Source: a virus
Virus record (IMG/VR): IMGVR_UViG_3300030339_000091
DNA length: 42,785 bases
Reading direction: 5' to 3' (one strand)
Positions 1 through 42,785 of the stretch are shown piece by piece. Numbering within the stretch: the stretch's first letter is position 1; each line of letters begins with the position of its first letter. The translations under genes were made by a program, and so were the position numbers. The notes below the pieces were generated by a model that saw only the letters and a list, made by a program, of their open reading frames with translations, was not told where the DNA came from and did no database searches.

Positions 1-127
1 TAAAAATATTTTTTATTTGAAAATGCGTTTTTTAGTGTTATTTCTTTGTATTTCAATGTATTATGATTAAGAAAGTTTAACTTTGAAGATGTTTTGTTTT
101 TTATTTGTGCTCTATAAATTCAGTGTA
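1..127. repeat. Terminal direct repeat copy 1, identical to 42659..42785. It is an assembly overlap, so the genome is circularly closed.
   Basis: Read directly: bases 1..127 (taaaaatatttttt...ctataaattcagtgta) recur exactly at the 3' end. 127 nt is a typical de Bruijn k-mer overlap. Confidence 0.95.
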
Positions 128-18827: not shown

Positions 18828-20624
18828 ATGATAGAGTTCTACGTAAATAACAAGGAAGTACTTCTTCCTGAAGATTTTTCATTTGAGTTGAATGATGAAA
18901 ATCCGGAGATAACAAGCAAGGGTGAATTTTCGTTAGATATGACCGTTTCATTGCTAGAGCCTCAGAATGTAATTGTTTTTGAATTTTTAAACCGACTAAA
19001 TAAATCAACGACTTTAAAAACAGCCGATGCCTTATTGCGTAGAAATGGAGTATCACATTTAGGCACAATAATCGACATTGTAAATACGGATGTAGATGTT
19101 ACATTTCAATATGTTGCCGGAAATTCAGAACTTAAATATAATGTGAAAGCAGACAACCGGAAGATTTGGGAACTGACCGGATGGGGAACTGAATCAACAG
19201 TCAATTACGCCAGGGTTTTAGACAGCATTACAAATCCTAGTTGGACAAAGAATTTTGTTGCTGCACCTTTAATTATTGGCGGTCAGGTTTACAATAATTA
19301 TACTCTCAATGAGGGTGCATTAAATGTGCCTTCGACCATTACAGGTATTTCCAATTTTATAATGCAACCGTATTTATTGTATTATATCAATAAATTTCCT
19401 GAACTGCTAGGTTACAGACTTGTAAGTAATGTTTTGAATACAAATTTGCGTGCCCAAAAAATGTGGATGCTGAATTCTGCAGATTCGTTGAATTATGCCG
19501 ATGCGCTCCCAGATTGGACAATTGCCGAATTTGTTGATAATATAGAAGGCTTTTTTAATGTGTCATTTTTGGTTGATCCACTAAATAAAACGATCTCGAT
19601 TGAAAGTTTGGCATCCAGCATGGCCAAAAAGAAAACAGTAACGATCTCTAAAGTTTTAGATGCTTACGAAAGAAACTTACCGAATACGTCGAGACCGTTA
19701 CGGTTTGATTTTACCCGGGTAATTTATAAGGTTGGAGATTCAACTTACTTCAGGTACCAGCAGTTGAGCGATTCTGTATTGGAAAAGTGCACAATTATTG
19801 AATATGCTAATTTAACCGCAATGCAGAACGCATTGTGGGATACAGGTAATCTAAATGCGCTTATTATTCACAGAGATTTGGCAACCGGGAATGATTATTT
19901 TTACGGCGCTCCGAACATCAACTTGTACCGTGTAAATTGTGGTAGTTTTAATTATTTGAATTTGATAAATAAATTCAGTACAAACGGAACAAAAGAGAAG
20001 ATTTTGGAATTAAGCATCGTGCCGGCAGAGATGAATATTAAAACTCGAGACGTTGTTTGGTACAACGTCTCTGGACAGGAGATACATTTCCCTTGGCTTC
20101 ATTACCAACTTCCAAAATGCAGTAATTCTTATTATATAGGAAGCGAGCAGGGTTTTGTTGATACGGTGGAAAAATCGATTAAAACGGTACAGAGACAGAG
20201 TATTATGGAAGTTGCATTATTTACCGGTAAATTGCTATTGTACACGCAAACAGATGTAATTCAGAATGTACCTCAAATAATGTATCCATTCTCGCACCTT
20301 GATTATTATCCCGAATTTGGCGAACCGCTAGATTTGGGCGATCGGTATGCAATTTTTGAAGCATGGAAAAATACGCACTTCTCTCCGCTTGCGACTACCA
20401 CATTGCGGTTAATTGGTCCCGGTGGAGTTGTTACCGAATATCATCAGGAGTCGATACTTGATACCGATAACGAATATGTGTTTAAGGCTATTGATAACCC
20501 TGATATAAAGGCTAATAACTTATTTATTTACAACAACAAAAAGTACATGCCTATATCGTTTAATCGACAGGTATCGAATAAGCAAACAACGGTACTGGGA
20601 AAATTTTATCGGATGTTGGATTAA
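18828..20624 (+). CDS. Distal tail / baseplate-type protein (598 aa)
   Basis: Starts 3 nt after the TMP stop. Called by position only. Confidence 0.45.
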   Translation: MIEFYVNNKEVLLPEDFSFELNDENPEITSKGEFSLDMTVSLLEPQNVIVFEFLNRLNKSTTLKTADALLRRNGVSHLGTIIDIVNTDVDVTFQYVAGNSELKYNVKADNRKIWELTGWGTESTVNYARVLDSITNPSWTKNFVAAPLIIGGQVYNNYTLNEGALNVPSTITGISNFIMQPYLLYYINKFPELLGYRLVSNVLNTNLRAQKMWMLNSADSLNYADALPDWTIAEFVDNIEGFFNVSFLVDPLNKTISIESLASSMAKKKTVTISKVLDAYERNLPNTSRPLRFDFTRVIYKVGDSTYFRYQQLSDSVLEKCTIIEYANLTAMQNALWDTGNLNALIIHRDLATGNDYFYGAPNINLYRVNCGSFNYLNLINKFSTNGTKEKILELSIVPAEMNIKTRDVVWYNVSGQEIHFPWLHYQLPKCSNSYYIGSEQGFVDTVEKSIKTVQRQSIMEVALFTGKLLLYTQTDVIQNVPQIMYPFSHLDYYPEFGEPLDLGDRYAIFEAWKNTHFSPLATTTLRLIGPGGVVTEYHQESILDTDNEYVFKAIDNPDIKANNLFIYNNKKYMPISFNRQVSNKQTTVLGKFYRMLD

Positions 20625-21781
20625 TCTGTAATTTGTTTTACCACAGTATTTATAAGTTCCTGCGATGGCTTTCGAACATACCTTCTCAGCATTCTATCAG
20701 ATTTGTGATCGGTAAGTTTCCGAATTACAGATTCCGGAATCGATTTATTTTCTAAGGCAGTTATACCAGTATCGCGATACGAGTATAGCTGCTGATTTTT
20801 TTCTAACTCCATTTTGTCGCGAAGTTTATCCCAAATCTTATCAAGTTTTCGAGTATTCCACTTAAATAACCCGGGTTCCAAAACGGTAGATATAAGGTAA
20901 TATTTCATCGGGTATCTGTCGAATTCGTATAAAGTCGCCATTTTTACACAAAGCCATTCCGGAAGATAAGCAAATCGGAAATTATCGGTTTTCGATTTCC
21001 CTGCAGGGATTTTTATCACCTGGTTGAATAAATCAATATCGCAAATTTGAATTCGGCAAATTTCTGCCGGCCGAATGAAAGCAGCTCTCACCAAATCCAC
21101 TACTATCTCAAATCGTGGATTATTTTCCCTACACCAAAGAACCACTTTATCGTGGGTATTTAATTCAACCACCTGCCGGAACTTTTCCTCTTCCTTTTTC
21201 TTATCAAAATTCAAAAATACATTTTCTTTGCAATATTTCTTCTTAATTAGCCAGTACCAAAGGCTTCGATAAAAAACAAAATGATTATTATACGACCGAG
21301 AACCGCACTTCGGGTCAAGTTCAATCATGTCCATAAATTCATCGGCCAAGTCCTCATTAAATTGAATGGCAAAAATATTTTCAAGTTTCTTTTGAGTTAG
21401 CCAGTCAACCAGTTTTTTGCAGTAAGACTTGTAAGATCGGAATCCGTCTTCACTCATTTCCTTTTCCTTGATTATTTTAAATGTTTCAATAGCAGCTGTC
21501 AATTTTTCGTAGGCTTTTGTCACGTCAGCCCCGATGAATGGATTCTTTCCGGCAGCAAGATTGATATTGATGTCATTCGCTAATTTTCGAGTATAACGAT
21601 CGAGCGCAGTTTTACTCATCTTCTTTCGAAGATGATTCAACCGCATTTTTTTAGGCTTCAACGCATTGTATGCCGGGTGAAAAGCGTAGTAGATAATATA
21701 TAGTTCAGTTTCGTTGACAATTCTAGCCGGAATGTATTGAACTTGAAAATCGCTGTCGATTAATGTAGGTAAGTTGGTCAT
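20621..21781 (-). CDS. int: Tyrosine recombinase (phage integrase, Bacteroidota type with N-terminal arm-binding domain)
   Basis: Catalytic signature IRPAEICRIQ...DID, then LTDHKSDRMLRRYV (R...H..R...Y). The ATG at 21781 (MTNLPTLID) is preferred over 21844. Confidence 0.9.
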   Translation of the reverse strand: MTNLPTLIDSDFQVQYIPARIVNETELYIIYYAFHPAYNALKPKKMRLNHLRKKMSKTALDRYTRKLANDININLAAGKNPFIGADVTKAYEKLTAAIETFKIIKEKEMSEDGFRSYKSYCKKLVDWLTQKKLENIFAIQFNEDLADEFMDMIELDPKCGSRSYNNHFVFYRSLWYWLIKKKYCKENVFLNFDKKKEEEKFRQVVELNTHDKVVLWCRENNPRFEIVVDLVRAAFIRPAEICRIQICDIDLFNQVIKIPAGKSKTDNFRFAYLPEWLCVKMATLYEFDRYPMKYYLISTVLEPGLFKWNTRKLDKIWDKLRDKMELEKNQQLYSYRDTGITALENKSIPESVIRKLTDHKSDRMLRRYVRKPSQELINTVVKQITD

Positions 21782-21870
21782 ATTTTTAATTTTAATTAAC
21801 GTGTTGTTATTCAGCGTTTTATTAAAAATACGACCACTTTTCAAAGTGGTGGAGCGCTTTTGGCGCAGTA

Positions 21871-28688: not shown

Positions 28689-28988
28689 ATGAAATACAAT
28701 GAAATTGAATACAACGAAAAAGGATTAGTAAAATGCGAAGTTTGCGGACTGTATTTTCAACGGGTATCATGCCACGTAAACAAAGCACATGGAATGTCAG
28801 CCAGCGAGTACAAGGCAAAATTCGGGTTTAAGCAAGGAGAAGGTTTGTGTAGCGAGAAAAGTCGCCAAAAAACAAGCAAACAATCAAGTAGCCGATATAG
28901 AATGAATAAAGCTAGCTTGTTTATTGAAATGAGCAAAAAAACTAGATTTCCTAAAGGAATTTGTGGAAGAGTTTTTAAATGCGCCTAA
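28689..28988 (+). CDS. Ros/MucR-family zinc-finger transcriptional regulator
   Basis: CEVCGLYFQRVSCHVNKAHGMSASEYKAKFGF matches the MucR pattern C..C...........H....HG.s..eY..k.G. Confidence 0.6.
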   Translation: MKYNEIEYNEKGLVKCEVCGLYFQRVSCHVNKAHGMSASEYKAKFGFKQGEGLCSEKSRQKTSKQSSSRYRMNKASLFIEMSKKTRFPKGICGRVFKCA

Positions 28989-29072
28989 CGATAGATGTAT
29001 GTGTATTGCCCGTGTTTTCGGGCTGCACAACACTGTCAAATTATAATAAGGGCTACACATACATTAGTGTTA
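28986..29072 (+). repeat. attC-like imperfect palindrome E1 (87 nt)
   Basis: The 5' end is GCC-TAAC-GATAG-ATGTATGTGTA-TT-GCCC. The 3' end is GGGC-TACACATACAT-TAGT-GTTA. GCCTAAC equals the canonical integron inverse core RYYYAAC. The TAA is the stop codon of the MucR-like gene. Confidence 0.6.
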
Positions 29073-29110
29073 TGTTTAGTTTATTCTTTCTTTAATCAAA
29101 ATTCAAAAAT

Positions 29111-29347
29111 ATGGCAACAATAGCAATGATTCCAGCCGATAAACAAGGCAACAAAATTTTTATTAAAGATTTACGAGTTGACGAAAAACAACGAACATTC
29201 GTAAAATATAAATCAACTTACAATGATATGCCATTTATGGAAGTCGAATTGTACGGAGTAGATAATGGTCAAAACTGCGCTATTTGCGGAGACGATGGCA
29301 CAATCTTATATCGTTTCTCAACCGCATGGCTTTCTTCTTTAAATTAA
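29111..29347 (+). CDS. Cassette 1 ORF, hypothetical (78 aa)
   Basis: ATG ORF bounded by E1 and E2. Confidence 0.55.
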   Translation: MATIAMIPADKQGNKIFIKDLRVDEKQRTFVKYKSTYNDMPFMEVELYGVDNGQNCAICGDDGTILYRFSTAWLSSLN

Positions 29348-29350
29348 ACA

Positions 29351-29437
29351 TAACGACCGAGGCTATCGGCTTCATGGGCGTTCACAATCGCACACACTTT
29401 CGCAATGCTAATTAATGATGCCGATAGGCGTATGTTA
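29351..29437 (+). repeat. attC-like imperfect palindrome E2 (87 nt)
   Basis: TAAC-GACCGAGG-CTATCGGC ... GCCGATAG-GCGTAT-GTTA. Confidence 0.6.
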
Positions 29438-29490
29438 CCTGCAGGTGTATCTTATATTATTAAAAATCAATCAACTAATAAAATACTAAT

Positions 29491-29991
29491 ATGAAAACAA
29501 TTGAAGTATCAGACGAAATGTATTCCGCATTAATGGAAATTTCAAATGAATTAAACACGCAAAGCCATAGAGGAACGGCAATGCCTTACTTTTTTCAAGT
29601 TCAAACAGAACATGAAATTGCAGTACCCGAAGGAAATGGAACTGAAGCATGGTATCAGGACGGTGGAACTATTGAAACTGAAAAAGAAATAGTTGATACC
29701 ATATTTGATTATAAGTGCGGAAAAATGACAAAGAAAAAGATTAAAGAATTAGATTCTTATGACAAAGAAGAAATACTCGAAGACGCTGGGTGGAGAAAGG
29801 TTTATTATGATTATGAGAAAAGACTTGAAAACGCATTCTTCACTGAAAAAGCATGTGAAGATCATATAAAAATGAACAAACACAACCTTAATAAGCCACA
29901 TAGTTATTTAAACCACGCTTTTCGTAATCCTGAAATGGAATTAGTGTTAACTTTCCTATGTGAACTAAGTGGTGGAAAAATGCACAGATAA
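29491..29991 (+). CDS. Cassette 2 ORF, hypothetical (166 aa)
   Basis: ATG ORF bounded by E2 and E3. Confidence 0.6.
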   Translation: MKTIEVSDEMYSALMEISNELNTQSHRGTAMPYFFQVQTEHEIAVPEGNGTEAWYQDGGTIETEKEIVDTIFDYKCGKMTKKKIKELDSYDKEEILEDAGWRKVYYDYEKRLENAFFTEKACEDHIKMNKHNLNKPHSYLNHAFRNPEMELVLTFLCELSGGKMHR

Positions 29992-30023
29992 TCGAACCTG
30001 CACGGACTTTTTACACTTGCAGG

Positions 30024-30107
30024 TAACGTGTGGCTATGCCTGCACGGCTTGCACACATTGTCGGAGCGTAAATTACTTGTCAGCCGTGTATGGCATAGGT
30101 GATGTTA
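30024..30107 (+). repeat. attC-like imperfect palindrome E3 (84 nt)
   Basis: TAAC-GTGTGG-CTATGCC-TG-CACGGCT ... AGCCGTG-TAT-GGCATAG-GTGAT-GTTA. Confidence 0.6.
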
Positions 30108-30166
30108 GCAGCATGGCGGTTCTTAATTAAAAATTTCTCAAATATTAATATATAAAAATTACAAAA

Positions 30167-30514
30167 ATGAAAAACTTAGAAATCAACATTCAAGACGAAT
30201 GTGCAAAAATTCATCACCAATATGGTATGAGCGAAATGGCAAACTATCGAATCGAACAGCTTTTCGATAAAAAATTAAAAGAAAAAATGCGATGGATTCT
30301 AGTTGACGAAGAAGAGCCTATATGTGTATTGGAAGACGAAGGAATTAATTATTCAAAATACTTGGAAATAAAAGTAAAAGGCTACGAGCATCCGTTCATC
30401 GGTTATTATGTAAAAGCTAATGACGACCAATTCTTTGATTTTATTCATAAATCAGTTGACGAAGGAATAAAACAAGAAGACGTTACTCACTTTCGTTTTG
30501 TTGTAGAAGCCTAA
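30167..30514 (+). CDS. Cassette 3 ORF, hypothetical (115 aa)
   Basis: ATG ORF bounded by E3 and E4. Confidence 0.6.
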   Translation: MKNLEINIQDECAKIHHQYGMSEMANYRIEQLFDKKLKEKMRWILVDEEEPICVLEDEGINYSKYLEIKVKGYEHPFIGYYVKANDDQFFDFIHKSVDEGIKQEDVTHFRFVVEA

Positions 30515-30551
30515 TAGTACGCAGGCGGTTGATTTTTCTTCCGCTTGCTGC

Positions 30552-30681
30552 TAACGTATCGACAGTATGCTTTAGTAGCACATCTGCGGGCTACATACTG
30601 CCGAAAAACAAATTCCGCTAATGCGGGCAATTAACTTTCAATTAACCACAAAAGCGGGCTATTAAGCATACTGTAGTGTTA
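30552..30681 (+). repeat. attC-like imperfect palindrome E4 (130 nt)
   Basis: TAAC-GTATCGA-CAGTATGCTT ... AAGCATACTG-TAGT-GTTA, with a long variable centre. Confidence 0.6.
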
Positions 30682-30702
30682 GTAGCCGTTTATTCTTTCT
30701 TT

Positions 30703-31344
30703 ATGAATCCACAAGACATTGACATAATCGTAGGCTGTGAAGAATCACAAGCAATCACAATCGAATTTAGAAAACTCGGCTTTAATGCTTTTAGCTGCGA
30801 CTTACAAGAATGTTCGGGCGGACACCCCGAATGGCATTTACAAATGGACGTTTTAGAAGCTATTAAACTAAAGGAATGGAAACTTGGTATATTTCATCCC
30901 ACGTGTACGTTTTTAAGCCGTGCCGGAGCTCGTTGGCTTTATCAAAAAGGCGAAATAAACAAAGAACGGTACGAAAAGGGATTAAAAGCAAAACAGTTTT
31001 TTATGGAGCTTTATAATAGCGATATTGATTATTTGCTACTTGAAAACCCAACGCCTTTAAAAATTTACGATTTGCCAAAACCATCGCAATGGGTTGAACC
31101 GTGGCAGTTCGGACATCCTTTTTCAAAGAAAACATTATTTTGGCTCAAAGGATTACCGCCTTTAATGTCAACAAAAATAATGAGTGAATACAAACCTTTT
31201 CTGCCTTCAAATACTGGCGGTGCAAAAAGAGGTCAAAAAGCAACGTTTAGAAACATTAGTCAGAAGGATTCGAGTAAAACATTTTCGGGTATTGCACAAG
31301 CTATCGCAACGCAATACGGCTCTTTTCTTTTAAATGGCTACTAA
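30703..31344 (+). CDS. Cassette 4 ORF: C5-cytosine-methyltransferase-like protein
   Basis: IIVGCEESQA...FSCDL...IFHPTCTFLSRAG...LLLENP resembles MTase motifs I, IV (P-C) and VI (ENV). The ATG at 30703 is preferred over the GTG at 30676. The stop codon lies inside the next TAAC. Confidence 0.5.
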   Translation: MNPQDIDIIVGCEESQAITIEFRKLGFNAFSCDLQECSGGHPEWHLQMDVLEAIKLKEWKLGIFHPTCTFLSRAGARWLYQKGEINKERYEKGLKAKQFFMELYNSDIDYLLLENPTPLKIYDLPKPSQWVEPWQFGHPFSKKTLFWLKGLPPLMSTKIMSEYKPFLPSNTGGAKRGQKATFRNISQKDSSKTFSGIAQAIATQYGSFLLNGY

Positions 31345-31425
31345 CGTATTGCAGCTATGGTTTAGTGCCGGACTTAACGCACAAAAGGTCGGACGAGAGC
31401 AAATAGAGTATTTTTTTGTGCGTGG
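31342..31425 (+). repeat. Degenerate attC-like element E5
   Basis: Starts TAACG at 31342. A second TAACG lies at 31375. A 10-bp stem ACGCACAAAA/TTTTGTGCGT is present. The 3' GTTA is replaced by GTGG. Confidence 0.35.
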
Positions 31426-31443
31426 ATTTCTTAATTTTAAAAT

Positions 31444-32184
31444 ATGGATAAACAAACAATCGCAGTATGGTTTTCTTGTGGGGCTGCCAGTGCAGTAGCT
31501 GCAATGAAAACACTTGAAAAGTATGGACAAACCCACAATATACTTATCGTGAATAATCCAGTTATCGAAGAACATGAGGATAATAGACGTTTTTTAAAGG
31601 ACGTTGAAGAATGGTTACAGCATCCAATTATTGAAGCTAAAAACAAAGATTTTCCTAACTGCTCGATAGTTGAAGTTTTCGACAAACGAAAATACATGAG
31701 TGGCAATTTAGGCGCGCCCTGTACAATGCTTTTGAAAAAAGAAGCCCGTTATCAATTTGAACTAACGCATAAAATTGATTTTCATGTACTCGGATTTACA
31801 ATCGACGAATGGGAAAGGCAAAAGAACTTCAATGAGAGTGAAAGAGGTAACACAATTCCAGTACTTATAAGCGAACTCATAACTAAAGAAGATTGCTTTA
31901 AAATTCTTCGGAAAGCTAAAATAAAACTACCAGCTATTTACAGCATGGAATTTCCAAACGCTAATTGTATTGGCTGCGTAAAATCACAAAGCCCAACTTA
32001 TTGGAATTTAGTGAGGCGTGAGTTTCCTGATATTTTTGAGAAGCGAGCAGAACAAAGCAGACGTATAGGCTGCACACTGGTAAAGAGAAAAGGTAAACGA
32101 ATCTTTTTGGACCAACTAAAACCAACTGATAAAGGCGGTAAAATTAAAAGCTGGGAGTGTGGGATTTTTTGCGACACTAAATAA
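31444..32184 (+). CDS. PP-loop / PAPS-reductase-superfamily protein
   Basis: The N-terminal IAVWFSCGAASAVAA is a variant of the SGG.DS PP-loop. The C-terminal Cys pair (NCIGC) is typical of PAPS-reductase-like proteins. Confidence 0.5.
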   Translation: MDKQTIAVWFSCGAASAVAAMKTLEKYGQTHNILIVNNPVIEEHEDNRRFLKDVEEWLQHPIIEAKNKDFPNCSIVEVFDKRKYMSGNLGAPCTMLLKKEARYQFELTHKIDFHVLGFTIDEWERQKNFNESERGNTIPVLISELITKEDCFKILRKAKIKLPAIYSMEFPNANCIGCVKSQSPTYWNLVRREFPDIFEKRAEQSRRIGCTLVKRKGKRIFLDQLKPTDKGGKIKSWECGIFCDTK

Positions 32185-32286
32185 TAACGGCTTGAAAAGC
32201 CGAGAGCGTGGATAAAAAATACGGACACAATGAGCAACACTTTAATACGAGCGCAAAAACAAGGCATTAACCATAGGTGTGTGTTA
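32185..32286 (+). repeat. Degenerate attC-like element E6
   Basis: Starts TAACG immediately after the stop codon and ends GTGTGTGTTA. Its internal pairing is poor. Confidence 0.3.
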
Positions 32287-32339
32287 GCAGCATACCGCTT
32301 GTCTTTCGTATCAAAAAACTTTTTGCGGTTGCTGCTAAC
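32283..32339. repeat. ORF-less hairpin with cassette-type ends (GTTAGCAGCATACCGC - 26 nt - GCGGTTGCTGCTAAC)
   Basis: Arms of 15-16 nt read directly. The ends are near-identical to those flanking the cassette 3 ORF. Confidence 0.7.
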
Positions 32340-33930: not shown

Positions 33931-33980
33931 TCCCATTGAATTTTTAATCAACTAACTAACCCACTAATATTGCAATTAAT

Positions 33981-34439
33981 ATGAGCGATTACAACGTTTA
34001 TCTGACAGTTCCCGAATACTTAGAGCAATGGATAACCCACACATTCGGAAATCCGGTACAACTCATTAAAGATTCTCCCGAAATGAGAACCCTAAATGAA
34101 TTGACCGTGAAACTGCCGTGTGATAAAATGCCTGATACCGGAGAAGGTTCCAATATCACAATACCAATTCCATATTTCAAGGGGAAAGACCCTGCCGTTT
34201 ACAACCACCTTTACGACAGTGGTAAAAATGCTATGGTTGAAAGTTTTTCTACTCTTTTCGATAAAAATCTATTTACCGAGATCACCGATTTGAAAAACGT
34301 TAATCTGAAACGCGCAACCTTAATTTATGCTTACATGGAAAAACACGGCATTGATGAAAAACATTGGGACACTGTGGCGCAACGTTGGCATCGACTCAAC
34401 CAAAAGTACGGCAAGAAAAAAAACATAAAAATCGCTTAA
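33981..34439 (+). CDS. Hypothetical protein (152 aa)
   Basis: ATG ORF. Confidence 0.55.
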   Translation: MSDYNVYLTVPEYLEQWITHTFGNPVQLIKDSPEMRTLNELTVKLPCDKMPDTGEGSNITIPIPYFKGKDPAVYNHLYDSGKNAMVESFSTLFDKNLFTEITDLKNVNLKRATLIYAYMEKHGIDEKHWDTVAQRWHRLNQKYGKKKNIKIA

Positions 34440-34544
34440 AATCACACTGACATTGAGCCCTGTTTTGTCGTAAATAAATACTTTCAATATTTTACTCATT
34501 ATTCGCACATTCAGCACTTTACGCACTTTTTTAAATGCAATATT

Positions 34545-34988
34545 ATGAATTCAAAAACACTTCCAACTATATTATTTGTCGAATATCTTCCGGTCGAAGA
34601 AATGACACTTTACCCAAAGAAATTTCTTTCACCTGGCGACACAACTTCCGCCATTGGCAACTGGACGAAACTAAAGTTAACCGACCCCGCTGGGTGTAAT
34701 ACAAGTCCGGAGCAAACTCCCAACGGATTAGTTTATACAACCAAAATCACCGGTGTAATTTCCGACGATCGCGAATCAAAACTTCAACACAAATTGCAAA
34801 CCCAATTCCATGCCTACCGGCTTACTGACGTGTACAAAAATAAATACCTGGTGGGAATTAACAAAAAGCCATTTCCAGAAATCATTTTTTCACCGGTGAA
34901 CGATGCTTCACCTTCCGGCATTCGAGCCATAAACTTTGAAATAACATGGGTTTCAACCCTTCCACCCATTGATATTGTTGAATTATAG
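34545..34988 (+). CDS. Hypothetical protein (147 aa), first gene of the head block
   Basis: ATG ORF upstream of the protease. Confidence 0.5.
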   Translation: MNSKTLPTILFVEYLPVEEMTLYPKKFLSPGDTTSAIGNWTKLKLTDPAGCNTSPEQTPNGLVYTTKITGVISDDRESKLQHKLQTQFHAYRLTDVYKNKYLVGINKKPFPEIIFSPVNDASPSGIRAINFEITWVSTLPPIDIVEL

Positions 34989-37121: not shown

Positions 37122-37679
37122 ATGAGTATCAAATATAAAGCCCTCGATTGGGCAGTGGGAACCACAAATCTTCCCGGTATCAAAGAAGATGTTTACGCTA
37201 TCGCCAAACGCGATATCGTAGCATGGCCTACGCTTCCGGCAGCATTTGTAACGAATATGGGTGAGCTGGTCATTTATGTTGGCAATTTCACGTTAGCTGC
37301 GTTGGCTAAATGGCAACGTGTTGGTATTATCGTTGACAAATCACCGGTTGACGGAAAGAGCCAAGGCGTTCGCCCAAGCAAAACGTTCTTGAATCAGGTT
37401 GTTTTACAACACCCCGGAGTGGAGGAAGATGCATCAGGTTTCTGTATGCAAGCCAATAACGATGATTTAGTTTATTTGGTGCAAACCAAAAAAGGTAAAT
37501 GGCGTGTTATCGGTAATGACATGTATCAGACCGATACAGTTATCGACCAGAAACTCGGCGGAGCTGCTACCGACGAAATGGGAACTACCCTGACCGTTAC
37601 CGTTACCGACCTTGCACCTGGTCTGTTTTACACAGGCGAGATTGTAACCGAAGATGGTATTATCAATCCAGGCGTGTAA
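37122..37679 (+). CDS. Abundant structural protein candidate (185 aa)
   Basis: Preceded by AGGAGA. It follows the MCP and is followed by a strong terminator. Confidence 0.35.
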   Translation: MSIKYKALDWAVGTTNLPGIKEDVYAIAKRDIVAWPTLPAAFVTNMGELVIYVGNFTLAALAKWQRVGIIVDKSPVDGKSQGVRPSKTFLNQVVLQHPGVEEDASGFCMQANNDDLVYLVQTKKGKWRVIGNDMYQTDTVIDQKLGGAATDEMGTTLTVTVTDLAPGLFYTGEIVTEDGIINPGV

Positions 37680-37702
37680 CCGATAACCACAGACAATTCC
37701 TC

Positions 37703-37740
37703 ACACCCTCGTAATTCAGTTTACGAGGGTGTTTTGTTTC
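37703..37740 (+). terminator. Strong intrinsic terminator after the capsid genes
   Basis: acaccctcgtaa / ttacgagggtgt (12 bp) followed by tttgtttc. Confidence 0.85.
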
Positions 37741-37848
37741 GGGATGTTGGAGTTCCGACTCCGACAAAATATCTGTCTTTTTCTAGGTAATTACCCATAA
37801 TTACTTTCGTAATGCTTAAAATAAATAACCCCATAAACATTCTAAAAA

Positions 37849-38883
37849 ATGAGTAATGAAAAGACTTATGTAGACAAAGTGAACGATTGGCTAAATGCTG
37901 ATCCTACCACCCGCACCATCGAAGAAGGTGCAACATTGATGCTTCAAGGTAATCGAAACAGAACCTTACACCAAAATGTAATTCACCGTAAAAACTTTGA
38001 CAAAGTTGTTTACGAGCTCGAAAAAATCATTGACGGTCAAAGAGTATTCCCTGAACCCGTAAATGAGGCAGTTCAACAACTGGAGGTAAATCTTCCGATC
38101 ACAATGGCCGGAATCGAAAGCATTTTATCCGGAGAAAGTAAAGGTAAACGTGCCGATCATGACACATTACCAACCGATATCCAAGCTATCTATGACAAGA
38201 ACCGCGAAATCTATCCACAATTACGTGGTATTCACGAACGATTGAAAGTTTTGAATGAAGTAGGAACTGCAGAACAAAGACTTCCTTTCCTTACCGAATT
38301 ATTATCGCTCGATGAACTACTTCGTACTAATTGGCAGGCATACGACACTTTCGATGCAAATGCACCGGTGATAGCAAAAGTTGAGAATGTACCAGGTAAC
38401 TTGAGTGGAAAACAAGTTTCTGCAGCTCGCAAATATCTGAGCGATAACAAAGCTAAATTGACCACTTTAATTGCCGACGGTAAGGCTGAAAAAGCTGCTG
38501 AGCTATTGGATAAAATGCAGGTTCGTTTTAATGAATTAGTATTGAATGGTGACACTTTTGCACCTGATCAGTTGGCAGAACTAAAAGCTCTGGGCATTAT
38601 TGCAGCTACTACCGAAGAAACCAAAACCGAACCGGTTACCGATACTCCAGTAATTACTGAAGGCGAAGAAGTGATTCCACCTGCAGGTGAAAATACCGAA
38701 GAAACTCCGGAAGAAAATCTGATTAGCCAAATCAAAACGCTGTTGAAAAACAACATTGAAGAAAAGGAAATAATCAAAACTATTTATTCCCTTGGTAATT
38801 TCAGAGGACTAGAACTTACACCCGATGTTGTGATAAGCCTAATCAACAAAGCAGTTGATCAAGAAATCAATTCAGTTGAGTAA
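37849..38883 (+). CDS. Hypothetical protein (344 aa) with an acidic Thr/Glu/Pro-rich linker
   Basis: ATG ORF. Confidence 0.55.
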   Translation: MSNEKTYVDKVNDWLNADPTTRTIEEGATLMLQGNRNRTLHQNVIHRKNFDKVVYELEKIIDGQRVFPEPVNEAVQQLEVNLPITMAGIESILSGESKGKRADHDTLPTDIQAIYDKNREIYPQLRGIHERLKVLNEVGTAEQRLPFLTELLSLDELLRTNWQAYDTFDANAPVIAKVENVPGNLSGKQVSAARKYLSDNKAKLTTLIADGKAEKAAELLDKMQVRFNELVLNGDTFAPDQLAELKALGIIAATTEETKTEPVTDTPVITEGEEVIPPAGENTEETPEENLISQIKTLLKNNIEEKEIIKTIYSLGNFRGLELTPDVVISLINKAVDQEINSVE

Positions 38884-39352
38884 AGTTGATCAAATATTGA
38901 AACCTATAGGCCCCGATTATGTCGGGGCTTATTTAAATACCGGCATACAACTCTACGATTTGATTGAATGGACTTTGCAGCAAATTGGAAAATCCGATAT
39001 CACTATCATGACATTCAGTATTTCCGAAGAATTTATCCGAAAAATATGGATGCTCAGGGAGATGGGATTAATCGGTAAAGTCACCCTGATACTCGATTTT
39101 AAAGCGATCCAAAAAACACAGCAGCTGATCCGATTTGCGCAAAATGTATTCAGCGATATCCATTTTTCAAAAACTCATGCAAAGGTAGTTTTGATTCAAT
39201 CTTCCAAGTACCAGGTATCAATCACCGGTAGTCAAAATTGTACCCGTGGGAATCGCGAAGAAAGCGGAATAGTTACAACGGATCCACAAATCAATAAAAA
39301 ATTACAGACTGAAATACAACGTATTATCGAAAATGGAATACACAGGGGATGA
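38855..39352 (+). CDS. Phospholipase D-like (Nuc-type) single-HKD-domain protein
   Basis: THAKVVLIQSSKYQVSITGSQNCTRGN resembles H.K....D......GS.N, with Q in place of D. The start is uncertain. Confidence 0.5.
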   Translation: MIKKSIQLSKVDQILKPIGPDYVGAYLNTGIQLYDLIEWTLQQIGKSDITIMTFSISEEFIRKIWMLREMGLIGKVTLILDFKAIQKTQQLIRFAQNVFSDIHFSKTHAKVVLIQSSKYQVSITGSQNCTRGNREESGIVTTDPQINKKLQTEIQRIIENGIHRG

Positions 39353-42133: not shown

Positions 42134-42460
42134 TCAGTTGACATAAACAAACCTTAAAAAAAGGTTCTCGAAGTCCGTTTTTGTTGATTTATAGTGATAT
42201 AGGTATCTAAAAGGCGGAAAACACCCACAAAACGCCAACAAAACAACCCGAAAATGATTGGTAATTCTATGCGGATAAAGCATTTATCTATGATTCCGAT
42301 TTTTGAAATTTGAATAGTGCCAAAATCATATTTCCAAAATTTGAAAAATGTATTTTATAAATTACTTTTTCTTTTATATTCTTCTTATATTACACATTAT
42401 CATTATGTTATATGTAATATTAAGAAAAAGATATAATAAGGGCAAAAAATATGTTTTTCG

Positions 42461-42660
42461 CTTACTACCTTACTACCTTACTATTTTTGTTTGTATTCAT
42501 TTGAAATACAATAGTTTAAAAGGTAGTAACCATTTAGAAAAAATGCTTTGAAATGGTTACTACTTGTTACTATTTAAAAATGCTTACTACCTTGTTTTGT
42601 TATATAAATGTATGATATATAGACTTATATGTTTATATAGTAGGTAGTAAGTAAAAAGTA
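42461..42660. repeat. Iteron array, TTACTACC and its reverse complement
   Basis: Direct copies at 42462, 42470 and 42584. Inverted copies (GGTAGTAA) at 42522 and 42643. Variants at 42557, 42567 and 42478. One more copy lies at 219..226 across the circular junction. A 13-bp perfect inverted repeat gtagtaaccattt/aaatggttactac spans 42523..42563. Confidence 0.75.
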
Positions 42661-42785
42661 AAAATATTTTTTATTTGAAAATGCGTTTTTTAGTGTTATT
42701 TCTTTGTATTTCAATGTATTATGATTAAGAAAGTTTAACTTTGAAGATGTTTTGTTTTTTATTTGTGCTCTATAAATTCAGTGTA
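42659..42785. repeat. Terminal direct repeat copy 2 (identical to 1..127)
   Basis: Exact identity read directly. Confidence 0.95.

Follow-up and report, generated by a model that had tools for sequence, protein, structure and literature searches.

Putative integron-type gene cassettes with attC-like hairpins in a probable Bacteroidota phage, and their relatives in phages and chromosomes

Recombination of single-stranded attC sites by the integron integrase IntI is thought to have been enabled by the I2 insertion of this enzyme. Xer recombinases act at sequence-specific 28-bp dif-like cores, comprised of two 11-bp arms and a 6-bp spacer, and the integrative mobile element exploiting Xer (IMEX) CTXphi makes use of a folded single-stranded attP, which is recombined by XerCD at dif. 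In the hyperplastic regions of T4-type phages, Arbiol et al. are said to have described promoter-early stem-loop (PeSL) cassettes in 2010, and reportedly proposed that these are shuffled via circular intermediates. Integrons are held to be defined by an IntI with an I2-containing domain (PMC7790495) and are regarded as rare in the Bacteroidota, with IntegronFinder surveys reporting few in the Bacteroidetes (PMC9024848). Clusters of attC sites lacking an integron integrase (CALINs) have been reported in 17 phages, including the Polaribacter phage P12002L, with methyltransferases among their cargo (Qi et al. 2023; PMC9892861). Here we describe a viral DNA of 42,785 nucleotides (nt) (IMG/VR record IMGVR_UViG_3300030339_000091; the whole stretch is referred to as the window), in which positions 28986-31420 very probably comprise four integron-type gene cassettes and one truncated terminal site, situated in the accessory region of a phage. 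These belong to a distinct family of attC-like sites whose probable enzyme is a Xer-like recombinase without the IntI insertion.

The array alternates hairpins with open reading frames (ORFs), and its features, with the limits of the putative cassettes, are as follows:

28975-28985, plus strand: orphan outer arm TTAAATGCGCC, directly ahead of the first TAAC, where the ORF for a MucR-like protein ends
28986-29072, plus strand: H0, attC-like site of 87 nt (TAACG, stem-loop, TGTTA), provisionally assigned to cassette 1
28989-29353, plus strand: cassette 1 (putative limits, with the crossover placed between TAA and C), H0 and a 78-amino-acid (aa) ORF (29111-29347); arms GTTA-TGTTTAGTTTA (29069-29083) and TAAATTAAACA-TAAC (29340-29354)
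29351-29437, plus strand: H1, attC-like site of 87 nt (TAACG...TGTTA)
29354-30026, plus strand: cassette 2, H1 and a 166-aa ORF (29491-29991, phrog_3205); arms GTTA-CCTGCAGGTGTA (29434-29449) and TACACTTGCAGG-TAAC (30012-30027)
30024-30107, plus strand: H2, attC-like site of 84 nt
30027-30554, plus strand: cassette 3, H2 and a 115-aa ORF (30167-30514); arms GTTA-GCAGCA-T-GGCGG (30104-30119; bulged T and G·T) and CCGCTTGCTGC-TAAC (30541-30555)
30552-30681, plus strand: H3, attC-like site of 130 nt with a long variable loop
30555-31344, plus strand: cassette 4, H3 and a DNA methyltransferase (MTase) ORF (30703-31344, phrog_757); arms GTTA-GTAGCCGTTTA (30678-30692) and TAAATGGCTAC-TAAC (31331-31345)
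31342-31420 (end approximate), plus strand: H4, truncated site, only the 5' half (TAACGTATTGCAGCTATGGTTTAGTGCC), which is similar to the 5' half of H3

Between positions 29069 and 31345, four consecutive ORF units carry GTTA and 11 nt at one end and the reverse complement of these 11 nt followed by TAAC at the other. A preliminary description of the window had claimed that the bases outside each GTTA pair across the ORF with those outside the next TAAC, and recomputation from the sequence returned the same values: 14 of 15 bases match between 29069-29083 (GTTATGTTTAGTTTA) and the reverse complement of 29340-29354, 15 of 16 between 29434-29449 and that of 30012-30027, 14 of 15 between 30678-30692 and that of 31331-31345, while in the third unit (30104-30119 versus 30541-30555) the first ten bases are identical. 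When a 1-nt T bulge is allowed in the latter unit, the last four bases (GCGG) pair as well. The flanks of a single hairpin were likewise correctly described as showing no complementarity past TAAC/GTTA; the site ends in the window read ACATAAC, AGGTAAC, TGCTAAC and TACTAAC on one side and GTTATGT, GTTACCT, GTTAGCA and GTTAGTA on the other. What had been overlooked is that the sole mismatch in each of the four units falls at position 11, counted from the G of GTTA, where the left arm has a G and the right arm a T, resulting in a G·T wobble on the plus strand and a C·A mismatch on the minus strand. The TAA of the right-hand TAAC of cassette 4 also serves as the stop codon of the MTase ORF. Outside TAACG/TGTTA the window hairpins have little sequence in common.

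Pairs in which GTTA plus at least 10 of 11 complementary bases face TAAC at a spacing of 150-1200 nt were counted in the whole window and in 300 dinucleotide-preserving shuffles. Three pairs were observed, all of them in the array, against a shuffle mean of 0.017; at least one pair occurred in four of the 300 shuffles, with a maximum of two. The distinctiveness attributed to the inverted repeats thus holds for pairs with a GTTA/TAAC core, which are far above the shuffles, but not for generic 15-nt inverted repeats with at most one mismatch, which occur at chance frequency (five observed, 3.9 expected). The signal therefore resides in the GTTA/TAAC core, the head-to-tail tiling of the ORFs and the fixed mismatch position, not in the length of the repeats. 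A 15-nt inverted repeat (TAATATTGCAATTAA at 33965-33979 and TTAAATGCAATATTA at 34531-34545) also surrounds a conserved 152-aa ORF (33981-34439); it has no GTTA/TAAC core, and such repeats are present at chance number in the window.

Palindromic, repeated and intergenic elements with the conserved termini TAAC...GTTA could also be produced if the hairpins were miniature inverted-repeat transposable elements (MITEs), or if the ORF units were small transposons with terminal inverted repeats. The flanks of a MITE would, however, be direct duplications or unrelated sequences and would not pair with sequence beyond the adjacent ORF, and the terminal repeats differ from unit to unit, so that no transposase could recognise them by sequence. 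Furthermore, there is neither a target-site duplication nor a transposase, and the attC-like sites of the window are confined to the array rather than dispersed. A transposon origin is consequently considered extremely improbable.

Circularisation of the units in silico had been predicted to give a hairpin with a fully paired outer stem, and it did: the circularised junctions, whichever of the two hairpins is used, fold with a continuous basal stem of 16-17 bp (-22 to -32 kcal/mol), as compared to a closing stem of only 5-6 bp (-14 to -23 kcal/mol) at the integrated junctions, a gain of about 6-12 kcal/mol. The plus strand is always the more stable of the two.

To place the array in a wider context, homologues of the 166-aa protein and the MTase served to fetch family loci, which were then searched with the pattern GTTA-N6-G-N4...N4-T-N6-TAAC. 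These loci yielded dozens of units, some forming arrays of seven or more cassettes (L025, L026 and L065), and across all fetched loci, which include both IMG/VR viral contigs and Bacteroidota genomes, 196 non-redundant units were obtained. YAAC and GTTR are invariant in the family. Counting from the G of GTTR, pairing is ~100% at offsets 0-13, ~67% at offset 14 and at background level (~15-29%) from offset 15. Offsets 4-9 and 11-13 are occupied by many different base pairs, while offset 10 is G·T in all 196 units. At offset -1 a T·G occurs in 78% of the units, a position for which the scan had not selected. Between adjacent units, 89 non-redundant hairpins were collected, with lengths of 48-197 nt (median 124), and all but one of these (88/89) start with TAACG and end with TGTTA. 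The ORF-coding strand folds better in 77 of the 89 (paired t-test p = 5e-18) and carries 2.16 G·T pairs per hairpin, versus 1.26 on the other strand. Conserved G·T wobbles, better folding and the location of AAC on the 5' arm suggest that the folding strand is most likely the ORF-coding strand. Hosts in a scan of the GTDB are nearly all Bacteroidota, including Hymenobacter, Lutibacter, Dysgonomonas, Chitinophaga and Saprospiraceae. The hairpin loops of one array (L008:4440-7650) and its relatives (L022, L025) share the motif AGTACAAA-N6-9-TTAAATTAAA-N-CAAATG, for which the window hairpins have a looser CACA...AATTA counterpart; a promoter driving the downstream ORF and a site bound by a protein are both possible roles of this motif.

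Several relatives of the array are linked to a tyrosine recombinase gene. In the phage contig L008 the array is followed by a gene for a 267-aa recombinase with 37% identity to a chromosomal homologue described below. Of 248 relatives of this enzyme found in IMG/VR, 80 loci were sampled, and arrays are present in 52 of them. The units in these loci show a near-uniform polarity (154 in one direction, one in the other), and 151 of the 155 stand upstream of the recombinase gene. In 35 loci the nearest TAAC is situated 46-95 nt ahead of the recombinase ATG, and in 29 of these at 52-54 nt, a placement not seen in the shuffles (0). The intervening attI-like spacer is conserved, with TAAC followed directly by TACTATATGTAAA..ATCTGTAAACA.., while the right-hand arm (arm') directly before the attI-like TAAC differs even where the platform recombinases are 91-95% identical, which points to turnover at the attI-like site. 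A gene for a single-stranded DNA-binding protein (SSB) follows the recombinase gene in the L008 contig only, and SSB linkage was therefore rejected as a general feature of the phage loci.

The polarity bears on the possibility that the ORFs are invertible segments, each flipped by a site-specific invertase via its flanking inverted repeats following inverton or shufflon logic. Inverted repeats of 15 nt around 270-650 bp are the classical signature of invertons and the window does encode a tyrosine recombinase. A flipped unit would nevertheless show the opposite mismatch polarity, with A on the left and G on the right, while 154 of the 155 units share one polarity. The repeat sequence differs per unit and only the core is common to all, the conserved mismatch would block a simple double-stranded crossover within the arms, and units are also found singly beside attI-like sites. 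No unit was found in both orientations at one place in reads or contigs. Inversion thus appears a scarcely tenable explanation for these units.

A chromosomal version of the platform occurs in Hymenobacter. In H. lapidiphilus a single MTase cassette is located 95 nt from the 3' end of a gene for a 361-aa tyrosine recombinase, which itself follows ssb, in GC-rich, non-phage surroundings with pta and a DUF808 gene upstream. Homologues of this recombinase (69-85% identity) are found in many named Hymenobacter species, and in all six chromosomal recombinase loci (five of them Hymenobacter; L076:9860-11805, L089, L090, L092, L093 and L094) one or more AT-rich cassettes are present just downstream of the gene. 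The layout comprises the stop codon, ~100 nt with two direct and one inverted copies of a 12-nt motif, AAT joined to GTTR, and the cassette(s), which have a GC content of ~30-45% in genomes of ~50-70%. The cassettes, including the first of each locus, differ between species and code for a FokI-like protein, a DinB-like protein and several unknowns, among others, while the polarity of the arms relative to the recombinase gene is identical in the six loci. Two of the loci (L076 and L094) have recombinases sharing 96% identity and identical attI-like regions, with divergence beginning exactly after GTTA. Synteny of ssb and the recombinase gene holds in the Hymenobacter loci for which upstream sequence is available. 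Taken together, the chromosomal recombinase, attI-like region and cassettes look like a sedentary integron-like platform.

These chromosomal loci also bear on the function of the hairpins, which might instead represent RNA elements, namely intercistronic terminators, processing sites or stability elements in a polycistronic early message, with the arms forming long-range RNA stems in which G·U accounts for the wobble. This would fit the occurrence of all ORFs in the window on the G·T-tolerant strand and the exact placement of the hairpins between them. In five chromosomal arrays, however, the ORFs and the G·T pairs are on opposite strands; what sets the polarity is the recombinase gene with attI, not the direction of transcription, and an RNA role thus fails as the main explanation. 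It also does not account for homology between contexts that breaks at the core, nor for a single cassette beside a recombinase gene in a foreign, GC-rich chromosome. An Rfam scan of the array region yielded nothing relevant, and the folding z-scores of the integrated hairpins in the window are only -1.3 to -2.3. RNA elements as such are hence a very unlikely explanation, although an additional RNA role for the hairpins is possible, such as the weak termination proposed for attC sites.

The position of the crossover can be deduced from contexts that share a cassette. One MTase unit, with 92-96% identity, occurs beside different neighbours in five loci (L021, L022, L023, L025 and L076). Its homology always ends at the right-hand TAAC (+0 to +21), whereas its start varies: -1 (TGTTA), -88, which is within the loop of the hairpin, or -124, where the TAAC of the hairpin upstream lies. 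Units at the ends of arrays finish with arm'-TAAC, joined straight to conserved non-hairpin sequence. The segment inserted in H. lapidiphilus, where this same cassette stands by itself, reads TAAC-hairpin-GTTA-arm-MTase-arm'-TAAC and has a GC content of 32-43% within a chromosome of 55-70%. The comparative breakpoints and attI junctions show that each hairpin moves together with its downstream ORF and that the crossover occurs in TAAC, at the hairpin's 5' side when read along the coding strand, with putative cleavage exactly between TAA and C. This agrees with the geometry of the attC bottom strand, which is cleaved in AAC on the 5' arm and has an excess of G:T pairs (PMC5027507); the bottom strand of attCaadA7 also reads TAACG...TGTTA (supplementary Table S3, PMC9892861). 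In the preliminary description, the unit was instead drawn as leader, ORF and downstream hairpin, with the crossover at GTTA. The breakpoints shift this register to a hairpin with its downstream ORF and a crossover at TAAC, but as both registers give one and the same circle, the pairing argument stands. The underlying proposal, that each unit was once a circle split by a crossover in the GTT/AAC core, gains from the reconstituted stem, its recurrence in the family, the breakpoints at the core, the linkage to attI-like sites and a recombinase, and the H. lapidiphilus insertion.

Alternatively, the hairpins could be conserved blocks which promote module shuffling through homologous or illegitimate exchange, in the manner of PeSLs and without a dedicated recombinase. 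Related arrays do share conserved stretches in the hairpin loops, and some breakpoints fall within the loop, at -88. Such exchange leaves unexplained the unit-specific complementary arms with their fixed length and wobble position, the sharp junctions at TAAC between a variable arm' and conserved attI-like sequence, and the tight linkage to a tyrosine recombinase gene, and the hairpins in the window have little common sequence past TAACG/TGTTA on which it could act. Exchange by homology is therefore regarded as unlikely to be the main process, but exchange through loop sequences may be a secondary contributor.

Both versions of the array-linked recombinase score best against the XerA/'integron integrase' NCBIfam model, below its cut-off, and reach 181 bits on TIGR02249 (cut-off 265) with a match in two pieces. 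Among solved structures, end-to-end alignments were obtained with XerA and XerC-like proteins. The alignment with VchIntIA (IntI4, PDB 2a3v), by comparison, falls into two blocks, with residues 175-213 of the query corresponding to 177-263 of IntI4, such that ~48-55 residues of the IntI-specific insertion (the I2 helix region) are missing. The only INPHARED matches to the 267-aa enzyme share <38% identity and are annotated as integrases of Cellulophaga and Polaribacter phages. The presumptive cognate enzyme is most likely a XerA/XerC-like recombinase without the IntI-specific insertion, whose gene is found in relatives beside a conserved attI-like sequence, where the arrays end in TAAC.

On the basis of the observed anatomy, family, breakpoints at the core and linkage to a recombinase and attI-like sites, the following mechanism can be proposed. 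Each cassette would comprise one attC-like imperfect hairpin (TAACG...TGTTA; 84-130 nt in the window) followed by one ORF, and the ~15-nt inverted repeats around the ORF would be the two halves of the outer stem of the cassette's own recombination site. In a free circular cassette these halves may pair as GTTR, 6 bp, G·T and 3-4 bp, thereby lengthening the R box. A tyrosine recombinase would insert the circle by a crossover in the conserved TAAC, leaving the outer-stem halves at opposite ends of the cassette, so that each integrated junction has one arm from each of two neighbouring cassettes. The ORF-coding strand would most likely fold and recombine, with single-stranded DNA as the putative substrate. 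Any movement of the cassettes in the window would depend on a recombinase from the host or from a co-resident element; alternatively, the array may be a recent fossil, and current mobility is at most presumptive.

A number of observations weigh against this proposal. The orphan arm at 28975-28985, which marks the attI-distal limit of the array, finds no complement anywhere in the window, other matches (three mismatches) being at chance level only. H4 is truncated, with neither a 3' half nor GTTA; it sits at the end of the array where relatives carry attI and the recombinase gene, and is followed here by a PAPS-reductase gene (31444-32184). Neither the array-associated Xer-like recombinase nor its attI-like sequence is present in this complete genome. 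The R box past GTTR does not fit RRRY in the window sites, leaving the RYYY/RRRY part of attC (R'' = RYYYAAC, R' = GTTRRRY) unfollowed. The bottom strands of five IntI1-validated attC sites were used for a crude covariance model, too small, too short in its loops and too insensitive to be decisive; it gave no significant match to the window hairpins (best E = 0.15, at another position) and E = 0.16 for P12002L_attC1. The latter, the only family member with an experimental test, was predicted by HattCI alone and was the sole site in that study which IntI1 did not recombine (PMC9892861). Unpaired bases number 4.5 on the AAC arm versus 2.3 on the other, the opposite of classical extrahelical placement, in a small and fold-prediction-dependent sample of 22 hairpins whose minimum-energy fold closes with TAAC/GTTA. 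The informative breakpoints derive essentially from one cassette family. Finally, the 24 near-identical contigs that were read have an unchanged cassette order and no polymorphism for this array.

The genome itself is that of a temperate tailed phage, probably with a Bacteroidota host. The first and last 127 nt of the window (1-127 and 42659-42785) are identical, which makes this contig (Ga0302286_10000281, JGI 3300030047) a circular assembly and the genome complete at ~42.66 kb. Structural genes encoding a tape-measure protein, head protease and terminase are present, alongside those for a CI-like repressor, VapE-type primase/helicase, MucR-like protein and PAPS reductase. One further feature is of relevance to the array:

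20621-21844, minus strand: tyrosine integrase, the only tyrosine recombinase of the genome and an ordinary phage integrase

This integrase was considered and rejected as the cassette recombinase, as it shows no similarity to the array-linked enzyme or IntI and scores 18.5 bits on TIGR02249 (cut-off 265). The complete genome thus lacks the associated recombinase, making the array CALIN-like. The phage's closest relatives, as judged by the VapE-like gene (L001-L007), are without the array, and the region from VapE to the conserved 152-aa ORF spans 0 to 5.3 kb among them. The content of this region also differs widely, which places the array in a hypervariable accessory region, and the relatives offered no informative empty or alternative array. 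The predicted empty site, with the MucR end joined to H4 (GCGCCTAACGTATTGCAGC), has a single exact match in IMG/VR, which was dismissed as due to chance since it lies within a structural gene of an unrelated high-GC phage (L075). A search of metagenome contigs for MucR homologues gave one distant match without cassette context, and INPHARED contains no DNA relatives of the array. The 78-aa ORF of cassette 1 has no match in Pfam or PHROG. A homologue of the 166-aa cassette gene (29478-29991), with 84% nucleotide identity, occurs in another phage (L177:1076-1588, and L178-L180), where it is an ordinary gene without arms or hairpins, the homology extending only from 13 nt before the ATG to the stop. 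Two genes upstream of this non-cassette copy, a 277-aa tyrosine recombinase (Phage_int_SAM_4, Phage_integrase) is encoded at L178:57-890 and L180:56-889. An iteron-like cluster in a long non-coding stretch of the window (42455-42660) contains GCTTACTACCTT in three direct and AAGGTAGTAA(C) in three inverted copies and could be an origin or operator region; the TAAC in it is due to chance and unrelated to the cassette sites.

Whether the arrays and platforms together represent an unrecognised integron-like system of Bacteroidota and their phages, in which hairpin cassettes are captured at attI-like sites by an I2-less XerA/XerC-like recombinase, is evenly balanced on the present evidence. If so, phages with their own platforms, or with recombinase-less arrays as in the window, would use them to reassort accessory and anti-restriction genes whose orientation is opposite to that in classical cassettes, and cassette recombination through folded hairpins would either have arisen independently or predate the IntI-specific domain. 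The family links integron logic, in the form of cassettes, attC-like hairpins, an attI-like site and strand asymmetry, to a Xer-like enzyme lacking the I2 domain, and offers a natural test of the need for the I2 helix in hairpin-site recombination. With 248 relatives in IMG/VR, the recombinase family is common in environmental Bacteroidota phages and, if functional, would add to the known routes of gene capture and allow phages modular exchange of methyltransferases and other accessory genes. As the 166-aa gene occurs both inside and outside a cassette, the unsolved question of cassette creation can be approached directly. With standard integron finders, the arrays would be classed as CALINs at best and the recombinase would be missed.

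Among described systems, the PeSLs resemble the present array in that small accessory ORFs are arranged in a phage hypervariable region with stem-loops between them, and shuffling through circles has been proposed for them. Their proposed recombination, however, relies on homology that conserved promoter and stem-loop sequences share, and they are not known to have unit-specific complementary arms, an invariant AAC/GTT core or a linked tyrosine recombinase. Xer-dependent IMEXs such as CTXphi and the pdif modules of Acinetobacter plasmids share a Xer-type enzyme and gene modules between inversely oriented half-sites, and the present sites, too, may plausibly act as folded hairpins with unpaired or mismatched positions. 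Unlike Xer/dif sites, only YAAC(G)/(T)GTTR is conserved in the present family, with unit-specific arms and no 28-bp dif-like core, and the cassettes form ordered, uni-polar arrays on a dedicated attI-like site by the recombinase gene, apparently not on a chromosomal dif site.

Close relatives are known from phage P12002L (L091; KR136259), where two MTase cassette arrays with sites of the same family are located on the minus strand at 29150-32300 and 37180-38960. The hairpins between the MTase genes have TAACG...TGTTA ends, and their arms, which pair across the ORFs, are interrupted by a mismatch or bulge where the other family members have theirs; the arms reach 20-25 nt and a TCTG/CAA bulge occupies the conserved position. 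P12002L_attC1 is one hairpin of the present family, and methyltransferases are recurrent cargo here as in the phages of Qi et al. The two P12002L arrays share a terminal sequence of ~70 nt (TAACAACGGATAAAAC...), listed by Qi et al. 2023 as P12002L_attC2. In that paper the sites were taken as ordinary attC predicted by HattCI or IntegronFinder, and the extended arms, the dedicated recombinase with an attI-like platform and the spread of the family are absent from it (PMC9892861). In the open-access literature, no Bacteroidota or phage integron-like system with a Xer-type recombinase was found, nor a description of how widely the family is spread, of its extended arms, of the Xer-like recombinase with its attI-like platform or of the inverted orientation of the ORFs. 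Phage CALINs are hence known (Qi et al. 2023; PMC9892861), while the extended arms and the Xer-like/attI-like platform were not found described.

In relation to integrons and CALINs in general, the window contains no IntI integrase and no attI site beside an integrase gene, at which cassettes would be inserted between G and TT, and so does not qualify as a complete integron, nor does it hold an integrase of the associated kind. The enzyme in its relatives is XerA/XerC-like, without the I2 region, and its scores stay under the cut-offs of NCBIfam for integron integrases. The outer stem measures ~15 bp and has an invariant G·T at position 11, where the classical R box has 7 bp, and RRRY/RYYY is not conserved. 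In the phage arrays the putative recombining strand is the one that carries the ORFs, opposite to the arrangement in classical cassettes, and the ORFs point in the same direction as the recombinase gene; the chromosomal attI-like site is found at the 3' end of that gene. In other respects the resemblance is extensive. Cassettes are arranged head-to-tail with one ORF each, and their recombination site takes the form of an imperfect hairpin whose AAC...GTT core is invariant; it measures 48-197 nt, as compared to 57-141 bp for classical attC, and varies in sequence while its structure is kept. One strand folds better, has an excess of G·T pairs and carries AAC on its 5' arm, and in relatives an attI-like site with repeats is located beside a tyrosine recombinase gene. 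The cassettes are AT-rich and foreign to the chromosome, and the platform-proximal cassette varies between near-identical platforms. As in integrons, a crossover in the core makes the outermost bases of an integrated site belong to the neighbouring cassette, and this cassette-boundary signature is stronger in the present family, extending 11 bases past GTTR as compared to four in classical cassettes.

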